The notes beneath the pieces are model-generated. The model saw only the letters and a program-made list of their open reading frames with translations, did not search any database and was not told the origin of the DNA. The position numbers and the translations under genes are program-made. From Candidatus Calditenuaceae archaeon (GTDB lineage: Archaea > Thermoproteota > Nitrososphaeria_A > Caldarchaeales > Calditenuaceae), in assembly GCA_025058055.1 (NCBI GenBank), contig JANXEU010000007.1, forward strand, positions 379 to 64,378: a stretch of 64,000 bases of DNA, in the 5' to 3' direction. Positions 1,274-46,646 of this stretch are shown piece by piece (position 1 is the first letter of the stretch; every line of letters starts with the position of its first letter).

Positions 1274-2734
1274 TTGGGGTTAAGGACCGGCCAGGATTAC
1301 CTTAAGAGCTTAAATGACGGTAGGGAGTTGTATATAGGAAACGAACTCGTGAAGGACCCTGCAACTCATCCTACCCTTCGTTATACTGCTCAGAGCGTGG
1401 CCAGATGTTACGATCTGCAGCTAGCGCGCGCTGACGAGGTGACTTTCGTTGAGAACGGAGAGAGGTTCAGTAACATCTGGCTACCGGTAAGGACTAAGGC
1501 AGACTTCGAGAGGGTGAGAAAAGGAGTAACCCTTTGGCACCGCACGACAGCCGGAATCTTCGGCAGGCTACACGATTACCTCACCATCTGGGTCACTACC
1601 CTTTACATGTTACATGACGTTCTCTCAAAACCCGATCCGAAGTTCGGTAAGAACATGATAGAATATTATTATTACGCGAGATCGAAAGACTTGGCACTTA
1701 CTCACGCGATCAGCATGCCTCAGATTGACAGATCACCTGGTGCTGGACGTAAACAGAACGAAGACCTTCACATCGTTGAGGTAAATGACAGAGGCGTCGT
1801 AATAGAGGGGTGCAGGACGGTCAGTACTTACGCACCCTTTGCGAATGAGTTCATCACTCTGCCTCAGCTACCTGCGAACCCGGACGAAGACCCCGATTAC
1901 GTGATAGGTTTCGCACTGCCGATGAACGCGAAGAACCTAGTATTCCTGTGCAGAGAGACCTACTCGTCTCCTGAAGCACCGTGGGATCACCCCTTGTCTA
2001 CGCTCTACGACGACCTAGACGCTCAAGCAGTCTTTGACAGGGTGTTAATACCTTGGGAGAGGATCTTCATCTATCGAGATCCCAAAATTAACTTTGAGAT
2101 CTATGACCCAATAATGGCTTACGCGACTTGGCAGGCGACTGTCAGGGCGATAGTCAAACTGGAGTTCATAATTGGTCTCGCGGCGAAGTGGGCAGAGATG
2201 TTGGGTATCGACGCCTATCCTAACGTGCAGGAGAGGATCGGATGGCTGATAGAATGGCGAAACGTCTTGAGCGCGGCGGTCGAAGGAGTAGAGCTGACTG
2301 CGCGACCCCACAACGGGTTCCTGATACCTGAGGTCTGGAAGACATGGCCGCTTGTCATGGTGCACGGTACCTACATCTACCCGATGGCGGTGGAGACATT
2401 GAGAGTGCTTACAGGAAGCGGCGTTATCATGAACCCACCGATGTCAGTTTTCAAGGATGAGAAGCTGCGCAAGTATGCTCACAAGTATTTCAGAGCGAAG
2501 GGAGCGTCGGCCTTCGACAGGCTACTCGTCTCGAAGTTCGTGCACGACATTACAGTGGGTTCGCTTGGTGGGAGGCTTCTCCAGTACGAGAGGTACTTCG
2601 CTGCAGATCCGTTCAGGGTCGCGATTGTTCACTACAGGTTCTCCGACAAAAGCCAGTTCAAGCAGCTCGTTGACGACCAGGCCGCATTCATCAAGTCGCT
2701 TATGAAAGAAGCTGGAATAAGCGAGGAAGGATGA
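1274..2734 (+). CDS. hpaB: 4-hydroxyphenylacetate 3-monooxygenase oxygenase component family (HpaB / 4-hydroxybutyryl-CoA dehydratase superfamily) flavin-dependent monooxygenase
   Basis: 486 aa. TGQDYLKSLNDGRELYIGNELVKDPATHP and VLIPWERIFIYRD match the HpaB N-terminal and C-terminal signature regions. The start codon is TTG; there is no in-frame ATG, and a TAG lies 30 nt upstream. Confidence 0.75.
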   Translation: MGLRTGQDYLKSLNDGRELYIGNELVKDPATHPTLRYTAQSVARCYDLQLARADEVTFVENGERFSNIWLPVRTKADFERVRKGVTLWHRTTAGIFGRLHDYLTIWVTTLYMLHDVLSKPDPKFGKNMIEYYYYARSKDLALTHAISMPQIDRSPGAGRKQNEDLHIVEVNDRGVVIEGCRTVSTYAPFANEFITLPQLPANPDEDPDYVIGFALPMNAKNLVFLCRETYSSPEAPWDHPLSTLYDDLDAQAVFDRVLIPWERIFIYRDPKINFEIYDPIMAYATWQATVRAIVKLEFIIGLAAKWAEMLGIDAYPNVQERIGWLIEWRNVLSAAVEGVELTARPHNGFLIPEVWKTWPLVMVHGTYIYPMAVETLRVLTGSGVIMNPPMSVFKDEKLRKYAHKYFRAKGASAFDRLLVSKFVHDITVGSLGGRLLQYERYFAADPFRVAIVHYRFSDKSQFKQLVDDQAAFIKSLMKEAGISEEG

Positions 2735-2738
2735 AGGA

Positions 2739-3263
2739 TTGTCGCAAACGACGGTCGCCGAAACTATTAAGGGGTTCATGAGATCTTATCCTCAGGGAGT
2801 GAGCGTTTCCACCACTACTCATAACTCCAAGCCCTGGGGGTTAACGGTAAGCTCGTTCACGTCGATATCACTGGACCCGCCGTTGGTGATGATCTCGATA
2901 GCCAAAGGTTCAAAGAGCCACGAAGTTTTCACGAAGTCCGATAACTTCGCAATAAATATGCTCGCTACGGGACAGGAGAGTATAGCGGAGATATTCGCAG
3001 GCAAAGTGCCTCCGGAGAGGAGGTTTGAACACGTGAGATACAGGTATGGCAAGTCCGGTGCTCCAATTCTCACGGATTGTAGTGCCTACCTAGACTGTAA
3101 AAATTACCGGACATACGACGGTGGTGATCACAGCATCATCCTGGGAGAAGTTATAGACGGTGCCGTGTCAGGACCGTTCTCGCCACTCGTCTACTTCAAC
3201 AGGAGGTACACTACAGTAGCCATCACGTATCTGGAAACAGTCTTTGCACCCGATCCATGGTGA
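2739..3263 (+). CDS. hpaC: Flavin reductase-like domain protein (HpaC-type reductase partner)
   Basis: 174 aa. Flavin_Reduct-like pattern (GLTVSSFTSISLDPPLVMISI ... ILGEV). It starts 4 nt after the hpaB stop, so it is probably translationally coupled. Confidence 0.7.
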   Translation: MSQTTVAETIKGFMRSYPQGVSVSTTTHNSKPWGLTVSSFTSISLDPPLVMISIAKGSKSHEVFTKSDNFAINMLATGQESIAEIFAGKVPPERRFEHVRYRYGKSGAPILTDCSAYLDCKNYRTYDGGDHSIILGEVIDGAVSGPFSPLVYFNRRYTTVAITYLETVFAPDPW

Positions 3264-3322: not shown

Positions 3323-5437
3323 ATGAGCATGCAGAGTTTCTTCAACCCAAAGAGTGTTGCTATAATCGGCGCCTCACGCGACCCTAATAGACCGGGTAAC
3401 ACCATCCTCAAGAACTTGAAGTCAATGGGATACCGGGGTAGAGTGTTTCCGGTTAATCCGAATCTCACGGAGATTGACGGCCTCCAGTGCTATCCCGACG
3501 TCCTGAGCATAGATGAGGACGTGGAGAACGTTGTGATTTTAGTCTCCGCGGACCGGGCCGTGAGGGTAGCCGAGGAGATAGCTGAGAGGCGCAAGAGACG
3601 TAATGACGTTAAGGCAGTGATTTGCATATCTGGGGGATTCAGCGAGCTCAACACGTCCGAGGGCAGGGAAAGGGAGAGGAGGCTTGTAGAGACCCTTAAG
3701 GGATCTGGTGTGAGACTGATGGGACCCAACTGCGTAGGAGTAATTGACTGCTACAGCAGATTCACCACGAACTTCGATTTGGGTGACTATCCGACCGGCG
3801 GAATATCGCTAGTCTCTCAGAGTGGTGCTTTAGCGACTGCTTTCCTCTTCTGGGCACGACCCTTTAACAGAATTGGTCTCAGTAAGCTTGTCTCGATAGG
3901 GAACATGGCTGACGTGGACATGGTCGAGTGTATCGAGTACTTGGGTAATGATCCAACCACCGACGTGATAGGGGTTTACTTGGAGGGATACCGTGATCCG
4001 CGGAAGCTCTTTGAGACGATGAGGAACGTCTCGAGTGAGAAGCCAATAGTGCTGCTGAAGGCAGGTAGGTCTGAAATCGGGAGCAGTGCGGCACTTAGTC
4101 ACACGGCCTCATTAACGGGCTTGGACGCCCTCTACGACGCCGCCTCGAAGCAGTGTGGAGTCATCAGAGTCAAAGACGTGCTGGAATGGTATGAGACCCT
4201 CCACGCTATAGGGAAGCAACCGATTCCACAAGGCAACAGGGTGGCTGTGCTGACACATATCGGAGGCCCCGGAACGCTTACCGTCGATAGAATAGGGATT
4301 GGCCGAGTGCTCAGAATGGCAGCGATATCGGATCGCGGAAAGTCTGCCATAAGATCGATGGTTGCCCCAACAGCCACAGTATGCAGTCCGGATGGGTACA
4401 TCGACTTGACCGCCTCACATACAGAAGAGCTTCACTACAAAGTACTGAAGGTCTTGTTCGAGGAAGAGGGAGTAGACTCGGTCATTCAAGTGGTGGGACA
4501 CAGCATGTTTCTCTCTCAGACCCTCATGGCTGACAGGATCAGCACTGCCTTCGAAGAGGTGGGGAGAGCTAACAGGAAGACGTTTCTGAACGTCGTAGCC
4601 TTTGACGAGTCACTTCCGGAATTCAAGTTAGGACTGGAAAACAGGGGGTTGCCTGAGTTTCCGACACCCGAGATCGCCGTCACGGTCTTAGAGTACATGT
4701 ATTGGTACGCCAATAAGAGAAAGAGATTGGCATCGGCACCGAGACTTACTCCTTTGCCCCCTGCGCGATCAGAACCACCCGTCCTTGGAAGAGAGGTACT
4801 CCTAGAGAGCGAGGCCTATCCCATCCTGAAGAGATACGGTATCTCTGTGGCGGATTACAGGATTGAGACGAACTACGATGAACTCGAGGACGCGGCCGAG
4901 GAGATCGGATTTCCTGTAGTATTGAAGGCCCAGCACCAAAGGTTGATTCATAAAACAGATGCCGGAGCGGTGGCGCTGAACATCAGCGATGCGAGTGAGT
5001 TACGCGAGCGGTTTCATGAGGTCACAGAGAACGTGATCAGGCACATAGGTGAACCCCCATCGTCTTATTTGGTACAGAAGATGATAAAACCGGGTGCCGA
5101 GGTCATAGTCGGTGCTGTGCATGACGACTCCTTCGGACCTGTTATAAGCTTCGGCAGCGGAGGTGTGTTGGTTGAGCTCCTCAAGGACGTGAGCTCGAGA
5201 TTGATCCCTCTAAGTGAAGACGAGGCTGCGGAGATGATTCAAGAGACCTTCGCTTCAAGGTTGTTATCGGGGTTCAGAGGTGAGGAACCGAAGGACATCA
5301 ACGCCTTGGTAGAACTCTTGTTGAAGGTGAGCGAAATGATGCTTAAGGAGGGTTGGATTAAGGAGCTCGATCTCAACCCGGTCAAACCATTGAGAAAGGG
5401 ATACGCGGTGGTCGATGCGAGGATCGTGCTACGCTGA
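3323..5437 (+). CDS. Acyl-CoA synthetase (ADP-forming), fused alpha/beta subunits (CoA-binding + ATP-grasp; ACD family)
   Basis: 704 aa. The N-terminal CoA-binding Rossmann region reads KSVAIIGASRDPNRPGN. A succinyl-CoA-synthetase-like ligase-CoA domain and a C-terminal ATP-grasp follow (FPVVLKAQ..HKTDAGAVALN). Confidence 0.8.
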   Translation: MSMQSFFNPKSVAIIGASRDPNRPGNTILKNLKSMGYRGRVFPVNPNLTEIDGLQCYPDVLSIDEDVENVVILVSADRAVRVAEEIAERRKRRNDVKAVICISGGFSELNTSEGRERERRLVETLKGSGVRLMGPNCVGVIDCYSRFTTNFDLGDYPTGGISLVSQSGALATAFLFWARPFNRIGLSKLVSIGNMADVDMVECIEYLGNDPTTDVIGVYLEGYRDPRKLFETMRNVSSEKPIVLLKAGRSEIGSSAALSHTASLTGLDALYDAASKQCGVIRVKDVLEWYETLHAIGKQPIPQGNRVAVLTHIGGPGTLTVDRIGIGRVLRMAAISDRGKSAIRSMVAPTATVCSPDGYIDLTASHTEELHYKVLKVLFEEEGVDSVIQVVGHSMFLSQTLMADRISTAFEEVGRANRKTFLNVVAFDESLPEFKLGLENRGLPEFPTPEIAVTVLEYMYWYANKRKRLASAPRLTPLPPARSEPPVLGREVLLESEAYPILKRYGISVADYRIETNYDELEDAAEEIGFPVVLKAQHQRLIHKTDAGAVALNISDASELRERFHEVTENVIRHIGEPPSSYLVQKMIKPGAEVIVGAVHDDSFGPVISFGSGGVLVELLKDVSSRLIPLSEDEAAEMIQETFASRLLSGFRGEEPKDINALVELLLKVSEMMLKEGWIKELDLNPVKPLRKGYAVVDARIVLR

Positions 5438-7057
5438 GACCGCGTGCGGAGGTTGTTCCCTGAGCTTGAACCTCTGAATCTTTCCCGTTGGAGTCTTCGG
5501 CAGGTCGCTTGTGAAGATCACCCACGCAGGTACCTTGTAGCCAACACCTAACCTCATCATGACGTGACGCTTTATCTCCTCTGCGAGTTCGTCGCTGGCT
5601 GAATATCCGGCCTTTAAGACTACGTGTGCCTTGGGTCTGCCTAATCCGTCAGGAGTGTATGCTTGAACAACCGCACATTCAACTACCGCGTGATGTGAGA
5701 GGATGGCCGACTCAACCTCAACCGGCGAGACCCATACTCCACCAGACTTGATGAGGTCGTCTGCTCGCCCCATGTGAACGAAATATCCCTCCTCGTCGGC
5801 CACGTATAGGTCACCGGTGTAGAACCATTCGCCGAGGAAGTGCTCTCTGGTCTTCTCGTATCGCCTCCAGTACATCGCTGCGACGCTTCCACCCTTGACG
5901 AGCATCCTTCCAGGCTCGCCGTAATTGACCTCTTTCATCTGCTCATCGACAAGCTTAACCTCATATCCTGGAACAACGACTCCTGATGTCCCAGGCCTTA
6001 TTTTATCAGGTCTATTCGATACGAAGATATGGCACATCTCTGTCGTCCCGATTCCATCCAAGATGTCCTTCCCAAATGTCTGTTTCCACTTGTGATAAAT
6101 CGGCGCGGGAAGAGCCTCGCCGGCGCTTACGCAGTACCTGACGCTGTCGAGATTGAAGCTCGTAGCACCTCTGGAATCGACGTGAGCCAAGGCTCTACTG
6201 TAAAAGACGGGAACGGAGAAGAAGAGCGTCACACGGAACCTTTCGATCGATTTGAGTACGAACTCTGGATCAGGTGGACCCGACATGAGAACCGTTGAAG
6301 CCCCGAAGTATAGTGGCGCCCAGACCGAGTTTCCTAAGCCGTACGCGAAGAAGATCTTGCTAGTCGAGAAGTTGACATCGTTACGGCTCTCCTTCAGGAC
6401 GTGTCTGTAATAGGACTCGCATGAGTAGAGCGGATCGTGTTGGTAATGAATGACACCCTTCGGCGGCCCCGTAGTCCCAGAACTGTACTGCCAGTAACAG
6501 AAGTCGTCCTTGTGGAGCCTCTCTGGTTGCAGGTTTCCGCTCGCGTTCTTGATGAGTTCCTCGTAACTCAACGCCTTACCGATTCCCGACCCACCCACCG
6601 CTATTACCTTCCTGAGACGTCCGAGCCTGTCTGTTGCGTCTCGCACTTTCTCGAGTAGGTTGGCGTGAACTACCAAAGCCTTAGCGCGGCAGTCTCCTAA
6701 GACGAACTCGTAGAACTGTTTAGACTCAAGCGTCGATAAGAGGACCGGCTGAGCTCCCACCCTTATCGCGCCCAGCAGCACCTCGACGTACTCAATCGAG
6801 TCCGGCAGTATTATCGCGACCCTGTCCTCCATCTCAACTCCAATGTCAAGCAGTACGTTCCCGGCCCTGTTGATCCGCTCGTGCAGTTGAGCGTAAGTTA
6901 CGGACCTCCCGCTCTCGGCCTGTATATACGCAAGACGATCTCCAAGCCCCGATGTCACGTGCCTGTCCACGAGGTACTCGGTCAGGTTGAAGCTTTCTGG
7001 GACTTGAAAGTCCACCGGCTCACCGGTCAAATGTACCATCTTATCTCTCACTCGCAT
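5429..7057 (-). CDS. AMP-forming aromatic acid-CoA ligase (benzoate/4-hydroxybenzoate-CoA ligase family)
   Basis: 542 aa. The YSSGTTGPPKGVIH P-loop, WFYTGDLY motif and terminal PKTPTGKIQR lysine motif are present. An alternative ATG start lies 18 nt downstream (MVHLTGE). Confidence 0.75.
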   Translation of the reverse strand: MRVRDKMVHLTGEPVDFQVPESFNLTEYLVDRHVTSGLGDRLAYIQAESGRSVTYAQLHERINRAGNVLLDIGVEMEDRVAIILPDSIEYVEVLLGAIRVGAQPVLLSTLESKQFYEFVLGDCRAKALVVHANLLEKVRDATDRLGRLRKVIAVGGSGIGKALSYEELIKNASGNLQPERLHKDDFCYWQYSSGTTGPPKGVIHYQHDPLYSCESYYRHVLKESRNDVNFSTSKIFFAYGLGNSVWAPLYFGASTVLMSGPPDPEFVLKSIERFRVTLFFSVPVFYSRALAHVDSRGATSFNLDSVRYCVSAGEALPAPIYHKWKQTFGKDILDGIGTTEMCHIFVSNRPDKIRPGTSGVVVPGYEVKLVDEQMKEVNYGEPGRMLVKGGSVAAMYWRRYEKTREHFLGEWFYTGDLYVADEEGYFVHMGRADDLIKSGGVWVSPVEVESAILSHHAVVECAVVQAYTPDGLGRPKAHVVLKAGYSASDELAEEIKRHVMMRLGVGYKVPAWVIFTSDLPKTPTGKIQRFKLREQPPHAVSA

Positions 7058-7285
7058 ATGCTGAATATATCCGTATTTCGCAAGTTTCGTCGAGCCACGA
7101 GGCTCCCAAGGCTACCGCTCGGTCATCAAGCGACAAGTAGATATACGATCGGCTGTAATAATGGAAGGACTAATGACGAGGTTTGGTCTGGTATTGCCGA
7201 ACATAAATTTTGAAGAGGAGGGCCGGTTCTTTGATCTCGGGTCACTCGCGTTCTATCACCCCTACAGAATTGAGGTGCGTTTGTG

Positions 7286-9535
7286 ATGGTCACTCGTTAT
7301 GTAGGTAAGCCGATACTGCCCGAGGAGTCTATCGCATACGTCATGGGAAAGGGTATGTATGTAGACGACGTAAGGTCGAACGCGCCTCTTCACCTCGCAG
7401 TCCTCCGAAGCCCTTATCCTAACGCGATAATCAAGAAAATAGACTGTTCTGATGCGGTTTTGAAATCTAAACTAGTGCTTCTACCGAGGGACAACCAGAC
7501 GTTAATGAAGTCGGCAGCGATGCCCGCGAACTTCGATCACAAGGGCCGCTCTAATTTGGTGAGGCTACCTGCACTTCCTTCAGACCTTCGGGTAAGGTTC
7601 GAGGGGCAACCTGTTGCAGCTGTGGTAGCAGAGTCGCGTTATGAAGCCCATGATTTATTGGACTCAATATCAGTGGAATACGAACAACTACCACCAGTTA
7701 AGACGATTGATGAAGCCCTGAGAGGAGACGTTCTAGTGCACGAGGAAACGCAGTCGAACATATCTGTTGAAGTGATCTACTCCGGAGGAGAAATCGATAC
7801 GGCGTTCTCAGAGGCAAACCTAGTGATTGAGGACAGTCTGGAAATTCACAAGACGATGCCGAACCCAATAGAGACGCGTGGGATCCTCGCCGAGCTAGTC
7901 GGTGACAAGCTGAAAGTATGGAGCACAAACCAAGGGCTCTTCAGAATCAGAGACCAACTTACGGACACCTTAGGCCTTCCGAAGGAAAGTCTCATCGTTG
8001 AACACGTGGATGTAGGAGGAGCGTTCGGCGTCAAGTCGTTCCTCTACCCAGAACAAGTACTCGTTTGCTACGCGGCCCTCATTCTAAAGAGACCGGTGAA
8101 ATGGATAGAAACCAGAAGTGAGCACCTGAGGTGTACCACTCACTCCAGAGATGTGAGGGCGAACCTCTCACTAGCAGTAAAGAGGGACGGAAAAATATTG
8201 GGAATAAGAGGCACCGTGATCGCGGACATAGGAGCCTATAACATCTTCGTCAACCCTAATTACGCGCCATTCATCGCGCAACAGCTCACCGGTCCCTATG
8301 ACATCAGTGCGGGTGAGGTGAGGGCAATCTCGGTTTTCACCAACAAGACACCGCTAGGGCCGTACAGAGGGGCCGGCAGACCTGAGGCCGCTTACTTCTA
8401 CGAACGCATGGTTGACTTGGTGGCCGAGGAACTCGGACTCGACCCGGTGGAGGTGAGGAAGAGGAATCTCGTGCCGCGGGAGAAAATGCCTTACAGGAAC
8501 CCCTTCGGCCTAACTCTGGACGTCGAGGACTACAACGCCATACTCAACAAGGCCATCAAGGAGTTCAGATACGAGGAGTTGAAGAGGTCTGTCTCCGAAG
8601 CGAAGGCCAAGGGCGAACTGGTCGGTATAGGAGTCGTCAACTACATCGAATTGAACAGAGCATCCTTCGGTGAGTCTGCTAAGGTCATCTTGCGCTCGGA
8701 CGGTAAGCTTCAGCTGATGTTCGGTTCCTCACCTCACGGCCAATATCATCAAACGGTGTTCAGACAGCTGGCAGCCGATGAGTTGAGGGTCGGTTTAAAC
8801 GAGGTGGTTTGGATTAAACCCTCGAGCGATCTCCTGCCACAGGGCGTCGGTACTTTCGGAAGCAGGAGCGCTGTCATTGGTGGAGAGGCGGTCATCAGGG
8901 CCACACGCAAGCTAAAGCAGATCGTGCTTGAGAGGGCTTCCGAGATGTCGGGGGTTAACCTCGAGTCGCTGGACCTCGAGGACGGTTGGGTCATCAAAAG
9001 GGACGACGGCGAGAGGTTGATGCGAATGAGCGAGCTAATCAAGTCAGAAGAGATTGAGGTCTTCGAGTTCGTCAAGGGCGAAGACATCTTCTCTTACGGC
9101 GTTCACATGGCGGTCGTTGAACTGGACAAAGAGACTTACACCATCAAACGGATAAAGTACTTTGCGATTGACGACGCTGGAAGGGTAATCAATCCACTGA
9201 TAGCAGAGGCACAGGTCACGGGCGGCATCGCGCAGGGGCTTTCGCAAGTGCTCTATGAGAGCGTCGCATACAACGACGAGGGTCTCCTTTCTGTGGGAAG
9301 CATCCTCGAGGCCGGCGTACCTGCCGCTGCTGACCTTCCGATCGATCTAACCTCTGAGCTCCACGAATACCCGTCACACTACAGTCACGGAGTGCGAGGT
9401 ATAGGTGAGGCCGGCACGATCGGAGCTCTGCCCTGTATAGTCGCTGCGCTCGAGGACGCTCTCAACAGACGCCTAAGTTCGACTCGCGGCCTTGCACACG
9501 TGCTCTGGTCGTTAGTCAGCGGCCCACATGAATAA
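7286..9535 (+). CDS. Molybdopterin-dependent hydroxylase large subunit (xanthine dehydrogenase / aerobic CO-dehydrogenase CoxL family)
   Basis: ~749 aa. The ORF track starts at GTG 7283, immediately followed by ATG 7286. It contains the Ald_Xan_dh_C/C2 domains and the loop GPYRGAGRPEA. Confidence 0.8.
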   Translation: MVTRYVGKPILPEESIAYVMGKGMYVDDVRSNAPLHLAVLRSPYPNAIIKKIDCSDAVLKSKLVLLPRDNQTLMKSAAMPANFDHKGRSNLVRLPALPSDLRVRFEGQPVAAVVAESRYEAHDLLDSISVEYEQLPPVKTIDEALRGDVLVHEETQSNISVEVIYSGGEIDTAFSEANLVIEDSLEIHKTMPNPIETRGILAELVGDKLKVWSTNQGLFRIRDQLTDTLGLPKESLIVEHVDVGGAFGVKSFLYPEQVLVCYAALILKRPVKWIETRSEHLRCTTHSRDVRANLSLAVKRDGKILGIRGTVIADIGAYNIFVNPNYAPFIAQQLTGPYDISAGEVRAISVFTNKTPLGPYRGAGRPEAAYFYERMVDLVAEELGLDPVEVRKRNLVPREKMPYRNPFGLTLDVEDYNAILNKAIKEFRYEELKRSVSEAKAKGELVGIGVVNYIELNRASFGESAKVILRSDGKLQLMFGSSPHGQYHQTVFRQLAADELRVGLNEVVWIKPSSDLLPQGVGTFGSRSAVIGGEAVIRATRKLKQIVLERASEMSGVNLESLDLEDGWVIKRDDGERLMRMSELIKSEEIEVFEFVKGEDIFSYGVHMAVVELDKETYTIKRIKYFAIDDAGRVINPLIAEAQVTGGIAQGLSQVLYESVAYNDEGLLSVGSILEAGVPAAADLPIDLTSELHEYPSHYSHGVRGIGEAGTIGALPCIVAALEDALNRRLSSTRGLAHVLWSLVSGPHE

Positions 9536-9568
9536 CTACTTATTGAGCGGATAGAACTCTGAGACATA

Positions 9569-11992
9569 ATGCCCGAAGGGGGAGTTAAACCCGGCGAGCA
9601 CCGAACCCAGATGAAATTTAAGTGGATTGGAAGACCCATGAAGAGGAAAGAGGACCTGAGGTTCCTGACCGGAAAGGGGCTATTCACCGACGATCTGAAG
9701 ATTCATAACGCGCTTCACGCAGTTATCCTGAGAAGTCCATATCCGCATGCGAGGATAAAATCTATCGATACCCTCAGAGCGGAGAAGCTTCCTGGCGTTC
9801 GGGCGGTTTTAATTGGGGCGCACTTGAAAGACCTCATCTCACCCTTTAGGCACCTCATCGACGTCCCACCTTACTACCCAATGGCGGTTGACAAGGTTCG
9901 ATACGTCGGAGAGCCGGTGGTGGCGCTGGCTGCAGAGGACAAATACACCGCGAGGGACGCTACCGAATTGATCGACATCGATTACGAGCCTCTGGATGCC
10001 GTGGTGGATGTGAAAGACGCCTTGAGGGAGGGCGCGCCGCTGGTTCACGAGGGGTACGAGCGGAACGTTGCTTGGCACAGGGAGTTCTCGTACGGAGACC
10101 CGGAGGAGGCTTTTTCGAGAGCTGAATGGGTAGTCCGTGGCACTTACAGATTCCACAGGTACAGTTCCACGCCTCTGGAGCCCTACGCTTGTGCGGTCCA
10201 CTTCGACCGAGGCACGGGTGTACTGACGGTCTGGGACCAAAACCAACAGGTAGGGCTTTACAGGGCTAGGTTCCCAGCGGCCATGAGAATGCCAGAGCAC
10301 TTGGTCAGACACATCACTTTGGACATAGGTGGAGGGTTTGGAAACAAGGTTATGTGTTACAGCACCTCTGCAATCGTTGCAGCGCTCGGTATTCTCACTG
10401 AAAGACCTGTGAAGTGGATGGCCGCAAGGAGCGAGGACATGTCACAAGTCCAGTCTGCCGACAGGCTTGCGGAGGTTGAGATGGCTCTCAGGAAGAACGG
10501 TGAGATTATCGGAATGAAGGTCAAGATATTTGAGAACATAGGAGCTTGGCTGAGACATCCTGAACCTCAGACCATAACGAGAGGGTTCTTCACCTTCACC
10601 GGTGCGTACAGGATCAGGGACCTATACATCGACGCGACGGCGGTGTTCACGAACAAGGCCCCAACTGTCCCAAATAGAGGCTACGGATGCCATCCGGCGT
10701 ATTTCCATCTCGAGCGCATGGTCGATAAGGCGGCCACGGAGCTGGGGATCGACGGAGCAGAACTGCGTCTCAGGAACTTCGTCCGACCCGAGGAGATGCC
10801 ATACACGACTCCCCTTGGCTGTGTTTACGACGGCGGTGACTACCCTGAGGCCCTGAAGCTGGTGATGGAGAAGATAGGTTACTGGGAGTTCAGGAGGAAA
10901 CAGCCGGATTATTGGGCGAAAGGCGTATACAAGGGGATCGGAGCGATCCTGATAGTTGAGCCGGCCTCAACACACGCCTCCGTGACCGCTCTCTGGGGGT
11001 CACCGATTCACCAAAGGTACGCGAGCACAAGTGAAGCTGCGATGGTAAGGGTTCACCCTACAGGCAAAGTCGTAGCGGCCTTAGGTACTGTTCCTCAGGG
11101 ACAGGGACACGAGACAGTGGTTGCACAGATAGTTGCAGACGTGTTATCTATAGACCCTGATGACGTAGAGGTCTTGCCGGGTTTCGACTCTCACACGCAC
11201 CCGTTCGGTGGTGAGTCGGGAACCTACGCGAGCAGATTCGCGGTCGTCGGAGCGGGTGCCGTATACGGAGCTGCAGTCGCCGTGAGGGAGAAGGCGCTCA
11301 GGATCGCTGCTAACCTCCTTGAGGTGAGGGCCGAGGACCTAGAGATGCAGGACGGTCGCATTTACGTCAAGGAGGATCCGAGCAGGTACGTCACTTTACG
11401 GGAGGTTGCCAGAGCAGCCTACCATCAGCTCGCCATGCTGCCGAAGGGCGAGGATCCCGGGCTCGAGGAGACATACACCTACAGGTTCCCTGTGGGCGAA
11501 CCGGCAGACGAGAAACTGAGATCGAACTACAGCTCATCATATGCATACATGGCGGGCGGCTGTATCGTGGAGGTAGACCCTGAGACTGGAAGCGTGAAGG
11601 TTGAGAGGCTGGTGATCGTGCACGACGCAGGCACCGTTCTGAACCCGCTGATCATGGACGGACAGGTTCACGGCGCTACGTACCATGGCATCGCAGGAGC
11701 GCTCCTGGAGGAGTTCGCGTACTCTCAGGACGGTTATCCTCTCGCTACGAACTTCGTCGACTACTTGGCACCAACTTCGGCAGACACACCAGACATGGAG
11801 GTGTACCACACCGAGCACCCCTCTCCCTTCTCGCCACTCGGGTCAAAGGGCAGTGGAGAGGGAACCACTATTCTGATGCCGCCACTGCTTGCATGTGCCG
11901 TTGAAGACGCCCTGAGGCCCTTCGCAGTCGAAGTGAACGAGCTCCCTCTCTCACCGCAAAGGTTGTGGAGCCTTATCGCCCGGCGGCGATGA
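9569..11992 (+). CDS. Molybdopterin-dependent hydroxylase large subunit, second tandem paralog
   Basis: 807 aa. Same family as the upstream paralog but with a deviant loop (VPNRGYGCHPAYFHLERMVD). The start could alternatively be ATG 9611 (MKFKWIGRP). Confidence 0.8.
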   Translation: MPEGGVKPGEHRTQMKFKWIGRPMKRKEDLRFLTGKGLFTDDLKIHNALHAVILRSPYPHARIKSIDTLRAEKLPGVRAVLIGAHLKDLISPFRHLIDVPPYYPMAVDKVRYVGEPVVALAAEDKYTARDATELIDIDYEPLDAVVDVKDALREGAPLVHEGYERNVAWHREFSYGDPEEAFSRAEWVVRGTYRFHRYSSTPLEPYACAVHFDRGTGVLTVWDQNQQVGLYRARFPAAMRMPEHLVRHITLDIGGGFGNKVMCYSTSAIVAALGILTERPVKWMAARSEDMSQVQSADRLAEVEMALRKNGEIIGMKVKIFENIGAWLRHPEPQTITRGFFTFTGAYRIRDLYIDATAVFTNKAPTVPNRGYGCHPAYFHLERMVDKAATELGIDGAELRLRNFVRPEEMPYTTPLGCVYDGGDYPEALKLVMEKIGYWEFRRKQPDYWAKGVYKGIGAILIVEPASTHASVTALWGSPIHQRYASTSEAAMVRVHPTGKVVAALGTVPQGQGHETVVAQIVADVLSIDPDDVEVLPGFDSHTHPFGGESGTYASRFAVVGAGAVYGAAVAVREKALRIAANLLEVRAEDLEMQDGRIYVKEDPSRYVTLREVARAAYHQLAMLPKGEDPGLEETYTYRFPVGEPADEKLRSNYSSSYAYMAGGCIVEVDPETGSVKVERLVIVHDAGTVLNPLIMDGQVHGATYHGIAGALLEEFAYSQDGYPLATNFVDYLAPTSADTPDMEVYHTEHPSPFSPLGSKGSGEGTTILMPPLLACAVEDALRPFAVEVNELPLSPQRLWSLIARRR

Positions 11993-12604
11993 AATTATCT
12001 CAATCAGGTCGGACCTCGTGAGTTTAACGTTGTAGAGGCTAGAGAACTTCCATAGCCCAAAGAGCTGTGCGGCTGGGGTCCTATCGGCTACACAGTCCAC
12101 AGGAACCACCACCCTGTAACCTCTGTGAAAGAGCCCAGACACTGTGTGATAGACGCAAGTAGTTGTCACGGCACCCGCAACAACTATCGTGGACCTTTCA
12201 GGCTTCAACCCGCGTGATTTGAGAGCTGCCTCCAATTCCGAGCTTAAGAAGGGATCGTAACAGTCCTTCTCAACTACAACGTCGGTTGGCGTGAGGTTCA
12301 GCTCGTCTACCAACTCGAACCCCCACTCACCTTTACGTGGATACGTCCTTGACTCTAGACCGGCGAACCTCGGATCCTTAGGATCGAAGTGAACTTTGGT
12401 GAAGAAGACCCACGCACCATGAGCTCGAAACACATCGAGAAGTCTTATGACGTTGGGTAGTATCTCTTGAGAAGTCTCAAGATATTTGCGACCTCGCGGA
12501 TGACAATATTCACGTTGAAGGTCCACTACGATTAAAGCGTCGGAACTTCTGTCGAGCTTAATCGCGACCGGTTCGGGAACGCTCCATTCCTCGGGAATGG
12601 ACAT
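11951..12604 (-). CDS. Isochorismatase-family (cysteine) hydrolase
   Basis: The ORF track's start is TTG at 12631. The more plausible ATG at 12604 gives MSIPEEW... The isochorismatase hallmark ALIVVDLQREY is present. It sits 15-40 nt downstream of livM on the same strand. Confidence 0.6.
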   Translation of the reverse strand: MSIPEEWSVPEPVAIKLDRSSDALIVVDLQREYCHPRGRKYLETSQEILPNVIRLLDVFRAHGAWVFFTKVHFDPKDPRFAGLESRTYPRKGEWGFELVDELNLTPTDVVVEKDCYDPFLSSELEAALKSRGLKPERSTIVVAGAVTTTCVYHTVSGLFHRGYRVVVPVDCVADRTPAAQLFGLWKFSSLYNVKLTRSDLIEIISSPPGDKAPQPLR

Positions 12605-12646
12605 CAACGCGTTTTTGAACTTAGTGCGCAACTTAGATTCCCCACC

Positions 12647-13621
12647 TCAAAATATCAAACTGGTCCATCGTCTTAGAACCGAGACGAGCCCGTTTCTGAA
12701 AACGGAGAACAATATAACAAGCACCGCACCGTACACGCTGAGTGATATGGGTCCCAAATACCGAACATTTTCGTTGATGTACGTAAAGATAACAGAACCT
12801 ATAACGGGTCCCATGACAGATGCCAACCCGCCAAAAACCGCCATTACCTGAGAAAGGATGTCTATGCTCGCAAAAGAGTAGTAGATAGGAGCGACCAGCC
12901 CATTGAAGTATCCGTAGAGGGCTCCTGCTGCACCGATGACGAAACCAGATATCGAGGCTACAATCACCTTGACACGTGTAACGTTAATTCCGACGACCTC
13001 CGAGGCCAGCTCCTCGCTCTTTACAGCCTTCATTATAAGACCCCATCTGCTCCTTTCCAACAACCAGTACCTTACGACAATCCACAGAATCGCCAAAGAG
13101 ACCGCTATGAAGTAGTTCGTCAATTCCAAACCCAGTGTCGCTTCCAATGGGCCCAGGCTGAGGGTGGGTGGCCGAAAGCCTGTGTCACCTCCTGTGACGC
13201 TGACTAAACCAGTTACGACGTTCTCGAAGATGAGCTGAAAAGAGAGCGTTAGGATCGCAACGAAAGCGACTCCAAGCTTTCTGACGTTAGACACGTAGCT
13301 CAGACCCGCCGCGACTCCGGCCGACATCACCGAACCGATTACTATAGTAAGCCACTGACTCAACCCGAAGTGAAGGCTGAGCAAGCCGCTGACATAGGCT
13401 GAGATCCCCGCTAGCGCAGCGACGCAGAGGAAGAGCTGATTCGTTCCGCCGAACAGAAGCGCAAAGGAACCTGCGAACACGGTGAAGTACGCCATTTGAG
13501 TCAAAATCCTCCAGTAGTATCGTCCGGTGAAGACGAAAGGGAGAACTATCAGAACCGCGATGAGGGCTAGCAGCGCGTAAAACTTGAGACTGTCTGATGT
13601 CAGACCGGAGCTGGGTCGCAA
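12647..13621 (-). CDS. livM: Branched-chain amino acid-type ABC transporter permease (LivM-like)
   Basis: 324 aa polytopic membrane protein with the LivM/BPD_transp_2 pattern. Confidence 0.75.
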   Translation of the reverse strand: MRPSSGLTSDSLKFYALLALIAVLIVLPFVFTGRYYWRILTQMAYFTVFAGSFALLFGGTNQLFLCVAALAGISAYVSGLLSLHFGLSQWLTIVIGSVMSAGVAAGLSYVSNVRKLGVAFVAILTLSFQLIFENVVTGLVSVTGGDTGFRPPTLSLGPLEATLGLELTNYFIAVSLAILWIVVRYWLLERSRWGLIMKAVKSEELASEVVGINVTRVKVIVASISGFVIGAAGALYGYFNGLVAPIYYSFASIDILSQVMAVFGGLASVMGPVIGSVIFTYINENVRYLGPISLSVYGAVLVILFSVFRNGLVSVLRRWTSLIF

Positions 13622-13632
13622 ATCCTCCTCCC

Positions 13633-14322
13633 CTACGGAGCCATTGGGAATTCCTGCACACCTTTCTCCCTGAAGACCTTCTCGAAACCGTAGATCTCGT
13701 ATGAAGTCTTGCCTTGGTCGTAGAGCCTCCTGCTCTCCCTCTCCCTCTCCTCCCTCTGCTTGGCTCGCTGCAAAACTTCCGCCGCTATCTCCCGAGGTAC
13801 AACCACTACACCGTCGTCGTCACCTACTATCACATCACCAGGTTTCACTAGGACTCCGCCGCAGATGACAGGCACGTTGATTGAACCCGGGTGCATCTTC
13901 GAGGACCCAATCGGGGAGACGTGTCGCGCGAACACTGGAAAACCCATCCTCCGGATCTCGGCAACATCTCTAACCGAACCGTCAACGACCACGCCGGCGA
14001 TGCCTTGACGCTTCGCCTGATAGCTCATCAAACCTCCCCACATGACGCCTAGAAGTCCGCTAGCGGCGATCACGATGACGTCACCTGGCTTGGCGAGGGC
14101 CATTGCTCTGTGCACCGTAACGTTGTCTGCGGGGTAACTGTTCACAGTGAGGGCAGGTCCAACCAGCTTAACGTCTTGTGCTATAGGCTTGATCTCAGGG
14201 TCCATAACGCACCTGTATTCCTTACTGATCGACTCGTAAACTGTTGAAGCCCCGAGGTCTTTGAAAGCATCTATTATCTCCCTCGGTAACTTAGGAAAAT
14301 CCCTGTAGACTATCGAGGTCAT
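13633..14322 (-). CDS. RraA-family protein / class II HMG-CHA aldolase-like (4-hydroxy-4-methyl-2-oxoglutarate aldolase family)
   Basis: ~229 aa from ATG 14322 (MTSIVYRDFPKLPREIIDAFKDL...). The ORF track starts at GTG 14343. RraA fold motifs are present (GDVIVIAASG...GGLMS...GIAGVVVDGSVRD..GDVIVGDDDGVVVVP), plus a ~60 aa C-terminal extension as in ProA/LigK-type aldolases. Confidence 0.7.
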   Translation of the reverse strand: MTSIVYRDFPKLPREIIDAFKDLGASTVYESISKEYRCVMDPEIKPIAQDVKLVGPALTVNSYPADNVTVHRAMALAKPGDVIVIAASGLLGVMWGGLMSYQAKRQGIAGVVVDGSVRDVAEIRRMGFPVFARHVSPIGSSKMHPGSINVPVICGGVLVKPGDVIVGDDDGVVVVPREIAAEVLQRAKQREERERESRRLYDQGKTSYEIYGFEKVFREKGVQEFPMAP

Positions 14323-14381
14323 CCTTATCCCGGAGGATGCCACCTGCTAATATATCTGATTCGCGTCTGTTTGAGAACGGT

Positions 14382-15275
14382 TCACTCGAACTCTCCGAGA
14401 ATCCCCTCGGGTCTGCTGAGGAGGACGACAGCAGCTGCCAACAACATTATCACCACGGACATGAAGGTGCCGACCAAGAAGCTCGCAACCATGTAAACTA
14501 TCCCCAGCAGAACACCCGATATGACCGTTCCCAGGATGCTTCTCACGCCGCCGACCACGCTGATCAACAGCGCGAGCACCGTAATCTCTATGCCAGACTC
14601 AGGCCCAATAGTGGCCGCCAACCCCCTCATTATGCCCGCAGCTCCAGCGAGGCCGCAACCCAGCACGAAGGTGATGAGCCTCATTCTGTCAATGGGGATG
14701 CCCGTAATCTCTGCTCCGGTCTCGTTCTGAGAGACTGCCCTTATGGCCTTACCTATTATCGTCGCCCTCAAGAGCGCTGCTAGAAGCATGAGCAACCCCA
14801 AGGATATGAGAGCGGAGAGGATCGCCGAAAACCGAAACGACATCCCCATAATCGTGATGGTCTGAACCTCGGGTCTGATAGAAAGGTAAACTGTCGGGAA
14901 CTGATTGGTGAAGTAGCCGTGAAGCAAAAGATAGAGGCCCAAAGTGATGAAGAGCCCGAGGAGCACGCGCTGCTCGCCCACGGACCTGAAGGCCGGCAGC
15001 AGAACCACCTTATAGACGAAGCCTCCGAAGGCGGCTGCGAGAGCAACACCTGCGAATGTTGCAGGGAAGACACCAATCGAGGGAATGAGCAGTGCCGCCG
15101 AGACGGAGGCGATCACCGCGAACTCGCCGTGTGAGATGTTGAGAATGTGAGCCTGACCGAATATCATTGTGATTCCGACAGCGACTAGTGCCAGCTGAAG
15201 CCCAAAAGTCACGCCGTCAACGATAATCACAGGCAGCTGCGAGATAAGGACAGCGGGGTTTTCTGCCACCATCAC
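14382..15275 (-). CDS. livH: Branched-chain amino acid-type ABC transporter permease (LivH-like)
   Basis: 297 aa membrane protein. It overlaps the livF stop by 4 nt. Confidence 0.75.
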   Translation of the reverse strand: MMVAENPAVLISQLPVIIVDGVTFGLQLALVAVGITMIFGQAHILNISHGEFAVIASVSAALLIPSIGVFPATFAGVALAAAFGGFVYKVVLLPAFRSVGEQRVLLGLFITLGLYLLLHGYFTNQFPTVYLSIRPEVQTITIMGMSFRFSAILSALISLGLLMLLAALLRATIIGKAIRAVSQNETGAEITGIPIDRMRLITFVLGCGLAGAAGIMRGLAATIGPESGIEITVLALLISVVGGVRSILGTVISGVLLGIVYMVASFLVGTFMSVVIMLLAAAVVLLSRPEGILGEFE

Positions 15276-15997
15276 GATCCACCGAGATAGTTGGCTCTCA
15301 CCCGTGGGTCTTGAGTCAGCACACGTGCGTCGCCTTTCATAACCACACGCCCACCCTCAAGCACGTAGACGAGCTCGCAGACCTTGAGCACAAGAGTTAC
15401 CTTCTGCTCTACCAGCAGTATCGTGAGGTCCTCGTTAAGGTCGCTGAGAAGGCGAAGCGAGTTGAAAAGCTCCTCCGTCAATAGAGGCGCCAGACCAGTC
15501 GACGGTTCGTCCAGTAAAAGAAGTCGGGGAGAGGACATCAAAGCCCTTCCGATGGCGAGCATTTGTTGCTCTCCACCGCTGAGCGTTCCCGCCTTCTGGT
15601 TCAACCGCTCGCGCAACCTTGGGAACAAGGAGAAGACGTAATCGAGGTTCTTCTCTATCTGGTCCTTGGCACGCGCCGTGTACGCACCTAGCTCAAGGAT
15701 CTCCTTCACAGTCATTTTCGGGAAAAGTTCCTTCTCAGCAGGAACGTACGCAATCCCCATCTTGACCCTCTCGTACGCAGGTACACCGTTTAGCCGCTTC
15801 CCCTCGAGAATTACCTCGCCCTTCTTAGGTTGTATGAGGCCAGCAACGGCCCTCATGAGAGTGGTCTTTCCAGCTCCGTTAGGCCCAATAACTCCAACTC
15901 TCATCCTCCGCTCAGGGATCTCTAAGTTAACCCCCCAAAGGACCTGAAACTCACCGTAACCAGCCTCTAGACCCTTTACCTCTAGGTAGGCGGTCAA
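15272..15997 (-). CDS. livF: ABC transporter ATP-binding protein (LivF-like)
   Basis: Walker A GPNGAGKTT, signature LSGGEQQ, Walker B LLLLDEP. Confidence 0.8.
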   Translation of the reverse strand: MTAYLEVKGLEAGYGEFQVLWGVNLEIPERRMRVGVIGPNGAGKTTLMRAVAGLIQPKKGEVILEGKRLNGVPAYERVKMGIAYVPAEKELFPKMTVKEILELGAYTARAKDQIEKNLDYVFSLFPRLRERLNQKAGTLSGGEQQMLAIGRALMSSPRLLLLDEPSTGLAPLLTEELFNSLRLLSDLNEDLTILLVEQKVTLVLKVCELVYVLEGGRVVMKGDARVLTQDPRVRANYLGGS

Positions 15998-16737
15998 ATC
16001 TCCACGCTCCTCCCGAGATATGCCTCGATTACCCTGCTGCTCTCCGCAATCTCAGACGGCGTACCCTCTGCTATGATCTCACCGAAATTCAGAACAACGA
16101 CCCTCTGCGCCAACCTCATTACAGCCCTGAGAAGGTGCTCTATCCAGAGAATCGTAACGCCGCTCTCCTCGTTCACCCTCCTCAACAGCTTTACAGCCTC
16201 GTCCACTTCAGAGGGGTTTAACCCGCTCATGTACTCGTCAACGAGAAGGAGTTTCGGCTGCTGGACGAGGGCCCTCGCGAGTTCGACGGACTTCTTCTCC
16301 TGCAGGTTCAGCTTCTTCACCTCGATGTCCGCTTTACTCTCCAAACCCAAGAACCTCAGGACCTCCTCGGCTATACTTGTAGCGTCGGGCACCCCTCGTG
16401 CTCTCCCGCTCCCTATCGCGCCCACAGCGACGTTCTCTATGACCGTCATGTCACCGAAGGGCCGTGGAATTTGGAAGGTCCTCGACATCCCTAAACGCGC
16501 TCTCTCATAGGGCGGCAGTTTAGTGACGTCCCGACCGTAAAAGACTACTCTACCTGACGTGGGTGGGTAGAGGCCGTTGATCACGTTGAAGAGGGTTGTT
16601 TTCCCCGCCCCGTTAGGCCCTATTATCGCGAGAATCTCACCTTCCGATACGGAGAACGAGACGTTCTTCAGCGCCGGCAACCCACCAAAGCGCTTGCTGA
16701 CCTGATCTAAGGAGAGCGCGACAGGCCGACGATCCAT
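15994..16737 (-). CDS. livG: ABC transporter ATP-binding protein (LivG-like)
   Basis: Walker A GPNGAGKTT, signature MSGLNPSE-like, LLLVDE Walker B. It has a 4-nt overlap with livF. Confidence 0.8.
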   Translation of the reverse strand: MDRRPVALSLDQVSKRFGGLPALKNVSFSVSEGEILAIIGPNGAGKTTLFNVINGLYPPTSGRVVFYGRDVTKLPPYERARLGMSRTFQIPRPFGDMTVIENVAVGAIGSGRARGVPDATSIAEEVLRFLGLESKADIEVKKLNLQEKKSVELARALVQQPKLLLVDEYMSGLNPSEVDEAVKLLRRVNEESGVTILWIEHLLRAVMRLAQRVVVLNFGEIIAEGTPSEIAESSRVIEAYLGRSVEI

Positions 16738-16937
16738 TCTTCCACTGCATACTTTTGAATGATATTTAAATGTATAACATCAGGTACCTAAGTAAGGGAA
16801 AGTCGTGCGGTGAAGGTCTTTCACGTCGTCCGAGGAGAAGTCGGTTAATACCGCGTGAAAAACGCGGCACGGCCCCTCGATTCGCCTAAAAAGATATAAA
16901 AGGGGTGCTGTCTTTCTGCGGCCAGAGTAGGCAAGAA

Positions 16938-18857: not shown

Positions 18858-19090
18858 ATTCGTTTACAGCTCAAGGTATGATAGTGCGTTGAACCATAGA
18901 AACGTCGAGCGATCTCAAGCATGGTTTAATGAGCTTCTGCCTTCGGACATACCTCACGTTCGTGATCGCCCAGAGCCTAGACCCGAGAAGTTTTCTTCTC
19001 CTGTTGATGAATCCGTCGACGTCCCTTACGCGCTATCCAATTTCAGATTGAGAACCTGATTGTGTCATTGCACGCCTATCCGATTCAACA

Positions 19091-19100
19091 CGTTGATATA
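19091..19100 (+). promoter_or_regulatory. TATA box upstream of the SDR gene
   Basis: tgatataaag lies about 28-37 nt upstream of ATG 19128. Confidence 0.4.
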
Positions 19101-19127
19101 AAGCAAGTTAGGTTTGCTCTTAATGGC

Positions 19128-20216: not shown

Positions 20217-20243
20217 GAATGCCATATGAATCTCGAGACGACC

Positions 20244-23069: not shown

Positions 23070-23148
23070 GCAACCCACCAGATTGTGTTCTAAAATAAAA
23101 ATGCTTTGCAGGAAAGCGTATATGGTCGATGATCAGACCAGAGATCGT

Positions 23149-23856: not shown

Positions 23857-23962
23857 CTCGTCCACACTCTCAAAGTCAGATTATTAAAAATGCTTGCTGC
23901 TGTTGTCGCAGAGTTAAAAGTTCTTGTCTGAGGGATAAATAGAACCTTGGCGATCCGAACTC

Positions 23963-38444: not shown

Positions 38445-38468
38445 GTCTTGATGGCCACGAACTCTCTA

Positions 38469-40051: not shown

Positions 40052-40088
40052 CACGAGTGCTTCCAAAGGGCCGGTGATATCCTTCGCT

Positions 40089-46579: not shown

Positions 46580-46646
46580 GAAATAGGTATTTTATCAGGT
46601 AACATCGAACCGAATTGACGACCTGTTGGTGGCTAAACAGAGGACG

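Follow-up and report, generated by a model that had tools for sequence, protein, structure and literature searches.

XDH/CoxL-family large subunits encoded without adjacent partner genes in a putative aromatic-acid catabolic island of a Calditenuaceae archaeon

We analyzed a 64,000-nucleotide stretch of DNA from a Candidatus Calditenuaceae archaeon (contig JANXEU010000007.1, positions 379 to 64,378 of the forward strand; hereafter, the window), which carries three genes for molybdenum-pterin (catalytic) large subunits (L) of the xanthine dehydrogenase (XDH)/CoxL family. All three lie on the forward strand, and we refer to them as P1, P2, and P3. P1 (7283 to 9535; 750 residues from a GTG start) resembles form-II and archaeal aldehyde-oxidoreductase large subunits. 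P2 (9569 to 11992; 807 residues) falls in the clade of HmfA-like, or 2-furoyl-CoA dehydrogenase-like, proteins (K16877), and P3 (24665 to 27106; 813 residues) is a second HmfA-like large subunit. The Pfam domains Ald_Xan_dh_C, MoCoBD_1, and MoCoBD_2 (PF01315, PF02738, and PF20256) were found in each of the three proteins with E values from 1e-16 to 1e-80, far above the gathering scores. Proteins identical to P1 and P2 are deposited in NCBI (MCS7094447/8 and MDW8186685/6), and the two are therefore real genes and not chance open reading frames (ORFs). Judged by their domain architecture, P1, P2, and P3 are genuine full-length catalytic subunits of this family.

In NCBI and Logan, P1 is 749 residues long and starts at the ATG at 7286. 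P3 starts with TTG, and a Shine-Dalgarno-like GGGGG run lies 7 nt upstream. The NCBI model of P2 has 784 residues, implying a start at Met24 (region 9569 to 9640), and would remove Gly21, which is invariant in an N-terminal motif. Because this start truncates the conserved motif, ATG 9569 or ATG 9611 fits the homologues better. The gap between P1 and P2 is 75 nt with ATG 9611 and 33 nt with ATG 9569; an earlier note, made from the letters of the window alone, had described three large-subunit paralogs with P1 and P2 head to tail across this 33-nt gap, and both the ORFs and the Pfam architecture agree with it. P2 and P3 are 50% identical, and P1 and P2 belong to different subfamilies with 31% identity. 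The best matches of the window's proteins were proteins from NCBI metagenome-assembled genomes (MAGs) labeled Thaumarchaeota, Nitrososphaerota, or Ca. Caldarchaeum. In GTDB, where the genome of the window is not a species representative, the nearest species are Ca. Calditenuis fumarioli, with 80% identity between the P2 orthologs, and further MAGs of Calditenuaceae and Caldarchaeum. The organism also occurs in sequencing runs SRR15826899 and SRR15826900. In one of the related loci of our survey (labeled L001 onward), the P1-type gene of JGI contig L001 (687 to 3012) is called as two ORFs of 228 and 548 residues, a split suggestive of a frameshift or a sequencing error, or else of a pseudogene in this relative.

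Full-length alignments to solved chains of CoxL and of the Sulfolobales enzyme 4ZOH fix both the fold and the position of the active-site loop. We mapped the residues of the Mo site by alignment to 1N5W, 8UEM, and 4ZOH and with clade alignments. The loops read GPYRGAGRPEA in P1, VPNRGYGCHPA in P2, and GPNRGYGQQHA in P3, exactly as the earlier note had quoted them, and they align onto the CoxL segment 384-VAYRCSFR-391. For P2, phmmer placed TNKAPTVPNRGYGCHPA over TNKASGGVAYRCSFRVTEA of O. carboxidovorans CoxL (1N5W), which corresponds to the active-site loop at 384 to 391. The variant loops thus lie within the active site and not outside it. Four elements are kept in all three proteins: the Gln equivalent to CoxL Q240, the GG[GA]FG motif, the loop Arg (CoxL R387, bovine R912), and the Glu of the GxGE motif (CoxL E763, bovine E1261). 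In P2 this set comprises Gln226, GGGFG at 254 to 258, Arg370, and Glu764, and P1 carries GGAFG and GIGE.

The P1 loop had been called form-II-like, and this holds, with PYRGAGRPE common to P1 and its best solved relative, 4ZOH. The clade that contains P2 and P3 is very large and exceeds 7,600 proteins at E ≤ 1e-30. Its xxRGYG motif was present in nearly all of the 120 best homologues and also in operon-encoded bacterial members, with loops such as GPNRGYGCQQL, APNRGYGCQEL, and GLIRGYGGQQL. Seen against these relatives, the P2 and P3 loops are a normal subfamily signature and not aberrant. The residues that flank the Mo-site Gln differ, reading QNQQV or QHQQA in P2/P3 versus N[FY][QH]GP in bacterial members of the clade. 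The suggestion that different loops go with different substrates was borne out at the level of substrate class, with P1 of the form-II/aldehyde-oxidoreductase type and P2 and P3 of the HmfA-like type.

The companion suggestion, that P2 and P3 may have lost hydroxylase chemistry, did not survive. It would make them pseudo-enzymes or give them a non-redox role, and the change of the loop from GAGR to GYG[CQ] together with the absence of nearby redox partners could be read in this way. However, the same loop is the norm in the clade, including 64 operon-encoded loci, and the catalytic Gln, GGGFG, Arg, and Glu are all present. In addition, P2 and P3 retain 89 to 91% of the universally conserved columns described below, and orthologues are 66 to 83% identical across species. 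We therefore consider it most improbable that these proteins are pseudo-enzymes. To judge from the residues compared, there is no sign of new chemistry in P1 to P3.

A carbon monoxide dehydrogenase identity was weighed on the same alignments. KEGG-style annotation counts such Caldarchaeales genes as coxL, and CO oxidation has been inferred from them (PMC10547907); CoxL structures are also the best matches of P2 and P3 in the Protein Data Bank (PDB). The form-I AYXCSFR loop with its Cu-binding Cys, however, is found in none of the three proteins (PYRGAGR, PNRGYGC, and PNRGYGQ in P1, P2, and P3). Cys374 of P2 is aligned with CoxL Arg391 and not with the Cu-binding Cys388, and for this reason we do not regard the proteins as CO dehydrogenases. 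P1, P2, and P3 scored 383, 554, and 510 bits with TIGR02416, for which the cut-off is 991, and they also fell far below the cut-off of NF040766. Genes for coxMS, coxDEF, and coxG were not found, and the surrounding genes belong to aromatic catabolism. That P1 to P3 are aerobic CO dehydrogenases is thus hardly credible.

The earlier note had reported no [2Fe-2S] or FAD subunit ORF beside the three genes, and we found none anywhere in the 64-kb window. In tblastn searches of the window, CoxS, CoxM, CoxG, and XdhC taken from two bacterial operons whose L belongs to the clade of P2 and P3 returned nothing better than noise (E ≥ 0.2), and archaeal medium (M) and small (S) subunits from Caldarchaeales operons gave no match at E ≤ 1. 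Six-frame scans for plant-type or CoxS-type [2Fe-2S], 4Fe-4S, Rieske, and heme c motifs revealed none in a credible ORF of the gene island around P1 to P3. The sole FAD protein of the window (43873 to 45258), 17 kb away, is of the FAD_binding_4 (PCMH/GlcD) type and not of the CoxM type. A hidden Fe-S protein among the small ORFs of the island was also considered and rejected, as the motif scans were negative; the ORFs at 6881 to 7213 and 28123 to 28446 had no Pfam match.

We next compared gene neighborhoods across the clade of P2 and P3, scanning one genome per species and checking 80 loci for M, S, CoxG, and XdhC. Outside the Caldarchaeales, M and S both lay next to L at 64 of the 70 loci. 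These 64 come from bacteria, apart from two in Thermoplasmatota and one in Nitrosopumilales, and they typically show the order L-CoxG-M-S, often with XdhC upstream. Two of the remaining six loci are cut by contig ends (L024 and L026), and four lack partner genes (L018, L040, L068, and L084). Among the Caldarchaeales, none of the 10 species loci had M or S within 10 kb, and all Caldarchaeales contigs retrieved by exact-protein look-up likewise lacked M and S beside L. S or M is thus encoded beside L neither in the 64-kb window nor within 10 kb of the Caldarchaeales homologues. The orphan L genes of this lineage include P1-type genes and also glyceraldehyde dehydrogenase-like genes situated among unrelated housekeeping genes. 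In a neighbor-joining tree, the P2-type and P3-type proteins formed sister clades confined to the Caldarchaeales, a pattern that indicates duplication within the lineage; another three Caldarchaeales lineages, all orphans, were interleaved with operon-encoded sequences. Orphan status is therefore a Caldarchaeales-wide habit of gene organization for CoxL-like paralogs and is not peculiar to P1 to P3. A literature search on orphan coxL, shared subunits, and aromatic catabolism in Aigarchaeota returned nothing directly relevant.

S and M genes do occur elsewhere in the lineage. Loci L007, L032, L037, and L087 belong to Ca. Calditenuis fumarioli, for which the published KEGG table lists four coxS, two coxM, and five coxL (K03520) genes (PMC10547907, Table S3); its K16877-type L genes are additional to these five. 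All five Caldarchaeales MAGs analyzed in that study carry multiple copies of CoxL, CoxM, and CoxS (PMC10547907). A profile built from the Caldarchaeales CoxS of its supplement retrieved many (2Fe-2S)-binding proteins from Caldarchaeum. We inspected three S/M contexts (L094 to L099, from Caldarchaeum and Nitrososphaerota MAGs), and all were tight, overlapping M-S-L operons whose L has the XDH loop STRGFGAPQA and is 26 to 31% identical to P1 to P3. One of these operons sits amid genes for adenine deaminase, amidohydrolases, a Bmp nucleoside-binding protein, OTCase, and a PF00696 amino-acid-kinase-family protein, and from this purine-catabolism-like neighborhood it likely encodes a xanthine dehydrogenase. 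The presence of such operons means that the lineage makes classical three-subunit enzymes. Moreover, with coxS outnumbering coxM in the related genome, dedicated small subunits could be encoded at other sites. The recovered S and M proteins (MDW8042544-6, MCS6787713, and MCS7118104) fall in accession ranges unrelated to those of P1 and P2 and could not be linked to the MAG analyzed here. The Logan contigs with P1 begin inside the window.

The orphan proteins are as conserved as their operon-encoded relatives. A set of 172 alignment columns shows at least 95% conservation across 62 bacterial proteins encoded in operons; retention of these columns is 80 to 92% in the orphans and 79 to 84% in archaeal homologues with adjacent M and S. 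A second set of 122 columns is conserved in every operon-encoded member, and here retention was 88 to 97% among the orphans (91% for P2 and 89% for P3). Substitutions found in half or more of the orphans were confined to 6 of these 122 columns. Two of the six flank the Mo-site Gln, a position that suggests substrate tuning. The 122-column comparison showed no block of substitutions of the kind expected from a lost subunit interface. As an indirect test, this pattern argues for unchanged quaternary constraints on the orphans.

P1, P2, and P3 lie in a gene island that fills the first 30 kb of the window and is made up of two modules, with the genes for LigB, LigA, and a 4HBT thioesterase between them. 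In the first module, P1 and P2 on the forward strand are followed on the opposite strand by genes for an isochorismatase-family protein, LivM, an RraA-like protein, LivH, LivF, and LivG; loci L001, L014, and L032 repeat this arrangement. Flanking it are a divergent benzoate-CoA-ligase-family gene (5429 to 7057, reverse strand; AMP-binding; 541 bits with TIGR02262, cut-off 375), an ADP-forming acyl-CoA synthetase gene (3323 to 5437, forward; Pfam CoA_binding_2, Succ_CoA_lig, and ATP-grasp_5; conserved in L003 and L007), and genes for a candidate two-component aromatic hydroxylase (1274 to 3263, forward). The latter consists of an HpaB-type oxygenase (1274 to 2734; HpaB_N/HpaB) and a flavin reductase (2739 to 3263; Flavin_Reduct). 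The isochorismatase-family hydrolase, probably an amidase (11951 to 12631, reverse; PF00857, E = 2e-40), is convergent with P2 and overlaps its 3' end, and such a gene also follows the P2-type genes of L001, L003, L014, L015, and L032. Next comes an ABC transporter operon of the LivHMGF type (12647 to 16737, reverse), recognized from its translations and from the Pfam domains of syntenic genes in L001, L002, and L009. Between its two permease genes lies an RraA-like gene, RraA1 (13633 to 14343, reverse), whose product passes the model for 4-carboxy-4-hydroxy-2-oxoadipate (CHA) aldolase/oxaloacetate decarboxylase (NF006731; 202 bits, cut-off 179).

The conserved tandem of P1 and P2 raises the idea that the two form a heteromeric L-L' core in place of the L2 dimer of the (LMS)2 butterfly. 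Such a core would explain why same-orientation adjacency of the two genes is found in at least four related species (L001, L014, L032, and one further contig), why it persists despite identities of only 60 to 66% and 76 to 80%, and why the intergenic gap is short. Nevertheless, about 1.4 kb separates P1 from P2 in L001 and L032, and in L001 an MFS transporter gene is annotated in this interval. P1-type genes occur alone in L013, and a P2-type gene occurs without P1 in L003. The low identity of P1 and P2 and their different subfamilies also speak against a shared core. In addition, two sequential Mo-hydroxylase steps in one pathway are known, for example from the nicotine and ketone dehydrogenases of Arthrobacter. 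We consider an L-L' core quite unlikely.

Between the modules, an acetyl-CoA-synthetase-like AMP ligase (16905 to 18857) and an SDR of the NAD-dependent epimerase/dehydratase family (19062 to 20078), both assigned with Pfam, precede LigB (20226 to 21062; PF02900) and LigA (21082 to 21384; PF07746) of an extradiol ring-cleavage dioxygenase and the 4HBT thioesterase (21391 to 21798; PF13279/PF03061), all on the forward strand. The second module begins on the reverse strand with the Peripla_BP_6 solute-binding protein of the ABC transporter (21846 to 23078; PF13458, E = 1e-59) and an RraA-like gene (23149 to 23865). It continues on the forward strand with a divergent RraA-like gene (23963 to 24637), P3 27 nt downstream of it, a DUF6282 gene (27184 to 28119; PF19799), and an Amidohydro_2 gene (28401 to 29336; PF04909). 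The module is repeated in L003, L007/L037, and L016; the RraA-like pair, assigned with NCBIfam and Pfam, is kept before P3 in L003, L007, and L016, and the two downstream genes are conserved in L007/L037. Island context is conserved in at least four related species. Taken together, these genes suggest an island for the uptake and degradation of aromatic or heteroaromatic acids with a predicted extradiol (protocatechuate-4,5-type) lower pathway.

The neighbors of the L genes differ between the Caldarchaeales and bacteria. RraA-like genes accompany this L clade at 7 of 12 Caldarchaeales loci versus none of 69 bacterial loci, and isochorismatase-like genes at 5 of 12 versus none of 69. Conversely, enoyl-CoA hydratase (ECH) was found at none of the 12 Caldarchaeales loci versus 30 of 42 long bacterial loci, and an acyl-CoA ligase was present at 39 of those 42. 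The window has three RraA-like paralogs, and the linkage of RraA-like genes with L also appears in L001, L003, L007, L014, L016, and L032. An RraA-like gene always lies immediately upstream of the P3-type L, and in L003 the stop and start codons abut.

This linkage bears on whether the CoxL-like L proteins of the Caldarchaeales might be free-standing, that is, work without classical S and M, either with another electron partner or as oxidases, and possibly in complex with RraA-like proteins. In keeping with that idea, no S, M, CoxG, or XdhC was found near about 18 Caldarchaeales loci in four separate sub-clades, RraA-like genes are tightly linked to P3-type L at the frequencies given above, and the M-S pairs seen in these archaea are tied into operons whose L is of the XDH type. 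Several points speak against it. The orphans are as conserved as homologues with adjacent M and S, and no lost block of surface residues is visible. RraA-like proteins have no redox cofactor, and since RraA1 passes the CHA-aldolase model, an ordinary metabolic role beside LigAB is indicated. Related genomes with four coxS and two coxM have room for a dedicated S elsewhere. To our knowledge, every characterized member of the family drains its Mo center through two [2Fe-2S] clusters. A free-standing L is, in our judgment, unlikely.

We consider it probable that P1, P2, and P3 are hydroxylases of the conventional kind that receive their partner subunits in trans, within an island for the catabolism of aromatic or heteroaromatic acids. 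In this proposal, the three proteins would be functional Mo-pterin subunits, and the island would be that of a Caldarchaeales archaeon of the Calditenuaceae type. P1 would be an enzyme of the form-II or archaeal aldehyde-oxidoreductase type and may act on an aldehyde. P2 and P3 would be lineage-specific duplicates in a clade that also holds bacterial 2-furoyl-CoA-dehydrogenase-like enzymes, and their Mo center would most likely use water to hydroxylate an activated (hetero)aromatic compound. By analogy with the bacterial clade, this compound could be a CoA thioester supplied by the neighboring enzyme of the benzoate-CoA ligase family. The outlet for electrons would be [2Fe-2S] small subunits, alone or together with an FAD medium subunit, encoded elsewhere in the genome, the CoxL-like L genes having become uncoupled from S and M genes in this lineage.

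Several observations weigh against this proposal. None of the three contexts inspected in the Caldarchaeales held a free-standing S-M pair; the M-S pairs seen there sit in tight operons with the distant XDH-type L and may or may not serve CoxL-like L proteins. The S and M genes are known from related genomes, and of this genome the 64-kb window, part of a 101-kb contig, was read. No score of P1 to P3 reaches an NCBIfam equivalog cut-off, and hence no substrate is assigned; the best models were glyceraldDH_alpha for P1 (666 bits, cut-off 790), CO_dehy_Mo_lg for P2 (554, cut-off 991), and glyceraldDH_alpha for P3 (537, cut-off 790). Finally, the Caldarchaeales context, with RraA-like and isochorismatase-like genes and no ECH, is unlike that of bacterial furoyl-CoA operons, and the CoA-ester chemistry is therefore an analogy only.

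One potential explanation for the separation of CoxL-like L genes of at least three types (P1-like, P2/P3-like, and glyceraldehyde dehydrogenase-like) from electron-transfer genes is that it is systematic and reflects either a hub-and-spoke arrangement or a non-canonical electron outlet. In the former, a few shared S (and M) modules may serve many substrate-specific L subunits; in the latter, the tightly linked RraA-like proteins may be lineage-specific partners. We regard this explanation as doubtful, and we give an electron-transfer arrangement that is truly non-canonical a similarly small chance.

Our finding is thus largely ordinary, in that the layout is normal for the lineage and the loops are normal for a known subfamily. 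We conclude that the missing partner genes reflect how the Caldarchaeales organize CoxL-like genes and not a new enzyme architecture. What is new is the lineage-wide uncoupling of L from S and M, the lineage-specific linkage of RraA-like genes with L, and an aromatic island whose Mo enzymes are mislabeled as CO dehydrogenases. The label coxL in Caldarchaeales (Aigarchaeota) is routinely read as evidence of CO oxidation. P1 to P3, which are not CO dehydrogenases, instead mark a conserved island of thermophilic archaea with a CoA ligase, Mo hydroxylases, HpaB, LigAB, and a CHA-aldolase-like RraA, and they call for a different view of how these hot-spring archaea metabolize carbon. The uncoupling of L across the lineage, in contrast to near-universal operons elsewhere, also poses a modest, testable question, namely how multi-subunit Mo hydroxylases come together when L subunits outnumber their partners.

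Genes with a possible role in cofactor supply, which the earlier note had also pointed out, are present farther along the window. These are a MoaB/Mog-like molybdopterin-binding protein of molybdenum cofactor (Moco) biosynthesis (37914 to 38444, reverse; MoCF_biosynth, E = 1e-27) and a MobA/MocA-like nucleotidyltransferase (59833 to 60438, reverse; NTP_transf_3, E = 2e-34), a candidate enzyme for converting Moco to its dinucleotide form. Adjoining the MoaB-like gene, within 37914 to 40730 on the reverse strand, is a trio resembling F420 biosynthesis genes: CofD (2-phospho-L-lactate transferase), a nitroreductase-family protein, and a MobA-like (CofC-like) NTP_transf_3 protein. Elsewhere, the window of this archaeal genome encodes a full-length homologue of SBP56, of the selenium-binding protein/methanethiol oxidase family (49728 to 51119, reverse; 616 bits). 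A 638-residue fusion of an S-adenosylmethionine-dependent methyltransferase domain with a D-Ala-D-Ala-ligase-type ATP-grasp domain lies at 46626 to 48542 (forward), and a 523-residue protein with a weak nitroreductase-family match confined to its C-terminal half lies at 53244 to 54815 (forward).

Among known systems, the M-S-L operons of the XDH type in the Caldarchaeales (L094 to L099) share lineage and protein superfamily with P1 to P3; they differ in the STRGFGAPQA loop, in the low identity given above, and in the overlap of M, S, and L in one operon. HcrA of 4-hydroxybenzoyl-CoA reductase (1RM6) belongs to the XDH family and has an aromatic CoA thioester as its substrate, and the window likewise has benzoate-CoA-ligase-family and 4HBT genes. 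Nonetheless, P1, P2, and P3 scored only 270, 400, and 371 bits with TIGR03194 (cut-off 995), 1RM6 matched P2 and P3 at E values of about 1e-77 to 1e-78, and genes for HcrB and HcrC are lacking. With scores so far under the cut-off, we rejected this identity for all three proteins. Form I CoxL (1N5W and 8UEM) resembles them in fold and length, with 8UEM giving the best PDB score for P2 (E = 1e-157) and P3 (E = 3e-141), and it shares the Mo-site Gln, Arg, and Glu with P2 and P3; the three proteins lack its AYXCSFR loop and Cu-binding Cys, as well as coxMS and coxDEFG.

P1 is closest to the Sulfolobales aldehyde (glyceraldehyde) oxidoreductase. The S. tokodaii chain 4ZOH_A was its best PDB match (E = 9e-133), with SYRGAGRPE aligned to GPYRGAGRPEA and a form-II loop and GGAFG in both, and the best NCBIfam model was the glyceraldehyde dehydrogenase subunit alpha (NF041018), at the sub-threshold score given above. 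Unlike in 4ZOH, P1 residues ∼52 to 103 of the N-terminal a/b-hammerhead domain are unaligned, the match splitting there. P1 also has no adjacent genes for beta and gamma subunits, and its context is aromatic and not sugar catabolism.

For P2 and P3, the closest system is the HmfABC (K16877) clade, a name taken from the JGI labels of close relatives. P2 and P3 fall inside the clade of operon-encoded bacterial members in the neighbor-joining tree, with 40 to 45% identity to bacterial proteins, and they share with them the xxRGYG loop, GGGFG, and GxGE. The bacterial operons, exemplified by XdhC-L-CoxG-M-S-ligase-ECH in Brevibacillus marinus and also in a Syntrophobacterales genome, have adjacent M, S, CoxG, XdhC, and ECH genes. 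P2 and P3 lack all of these and so have no operon of the hmfABCDE type; their neighbors are RraA-like, isochorismatase-like, LigAB, and HpaB genes. Both systems, however, have an aromatic acyl-CoA ligase near the large subunit. By this comparison, the substrate of P2 and P3 probably differs from that of the bacterial HmfA-like enzymes.

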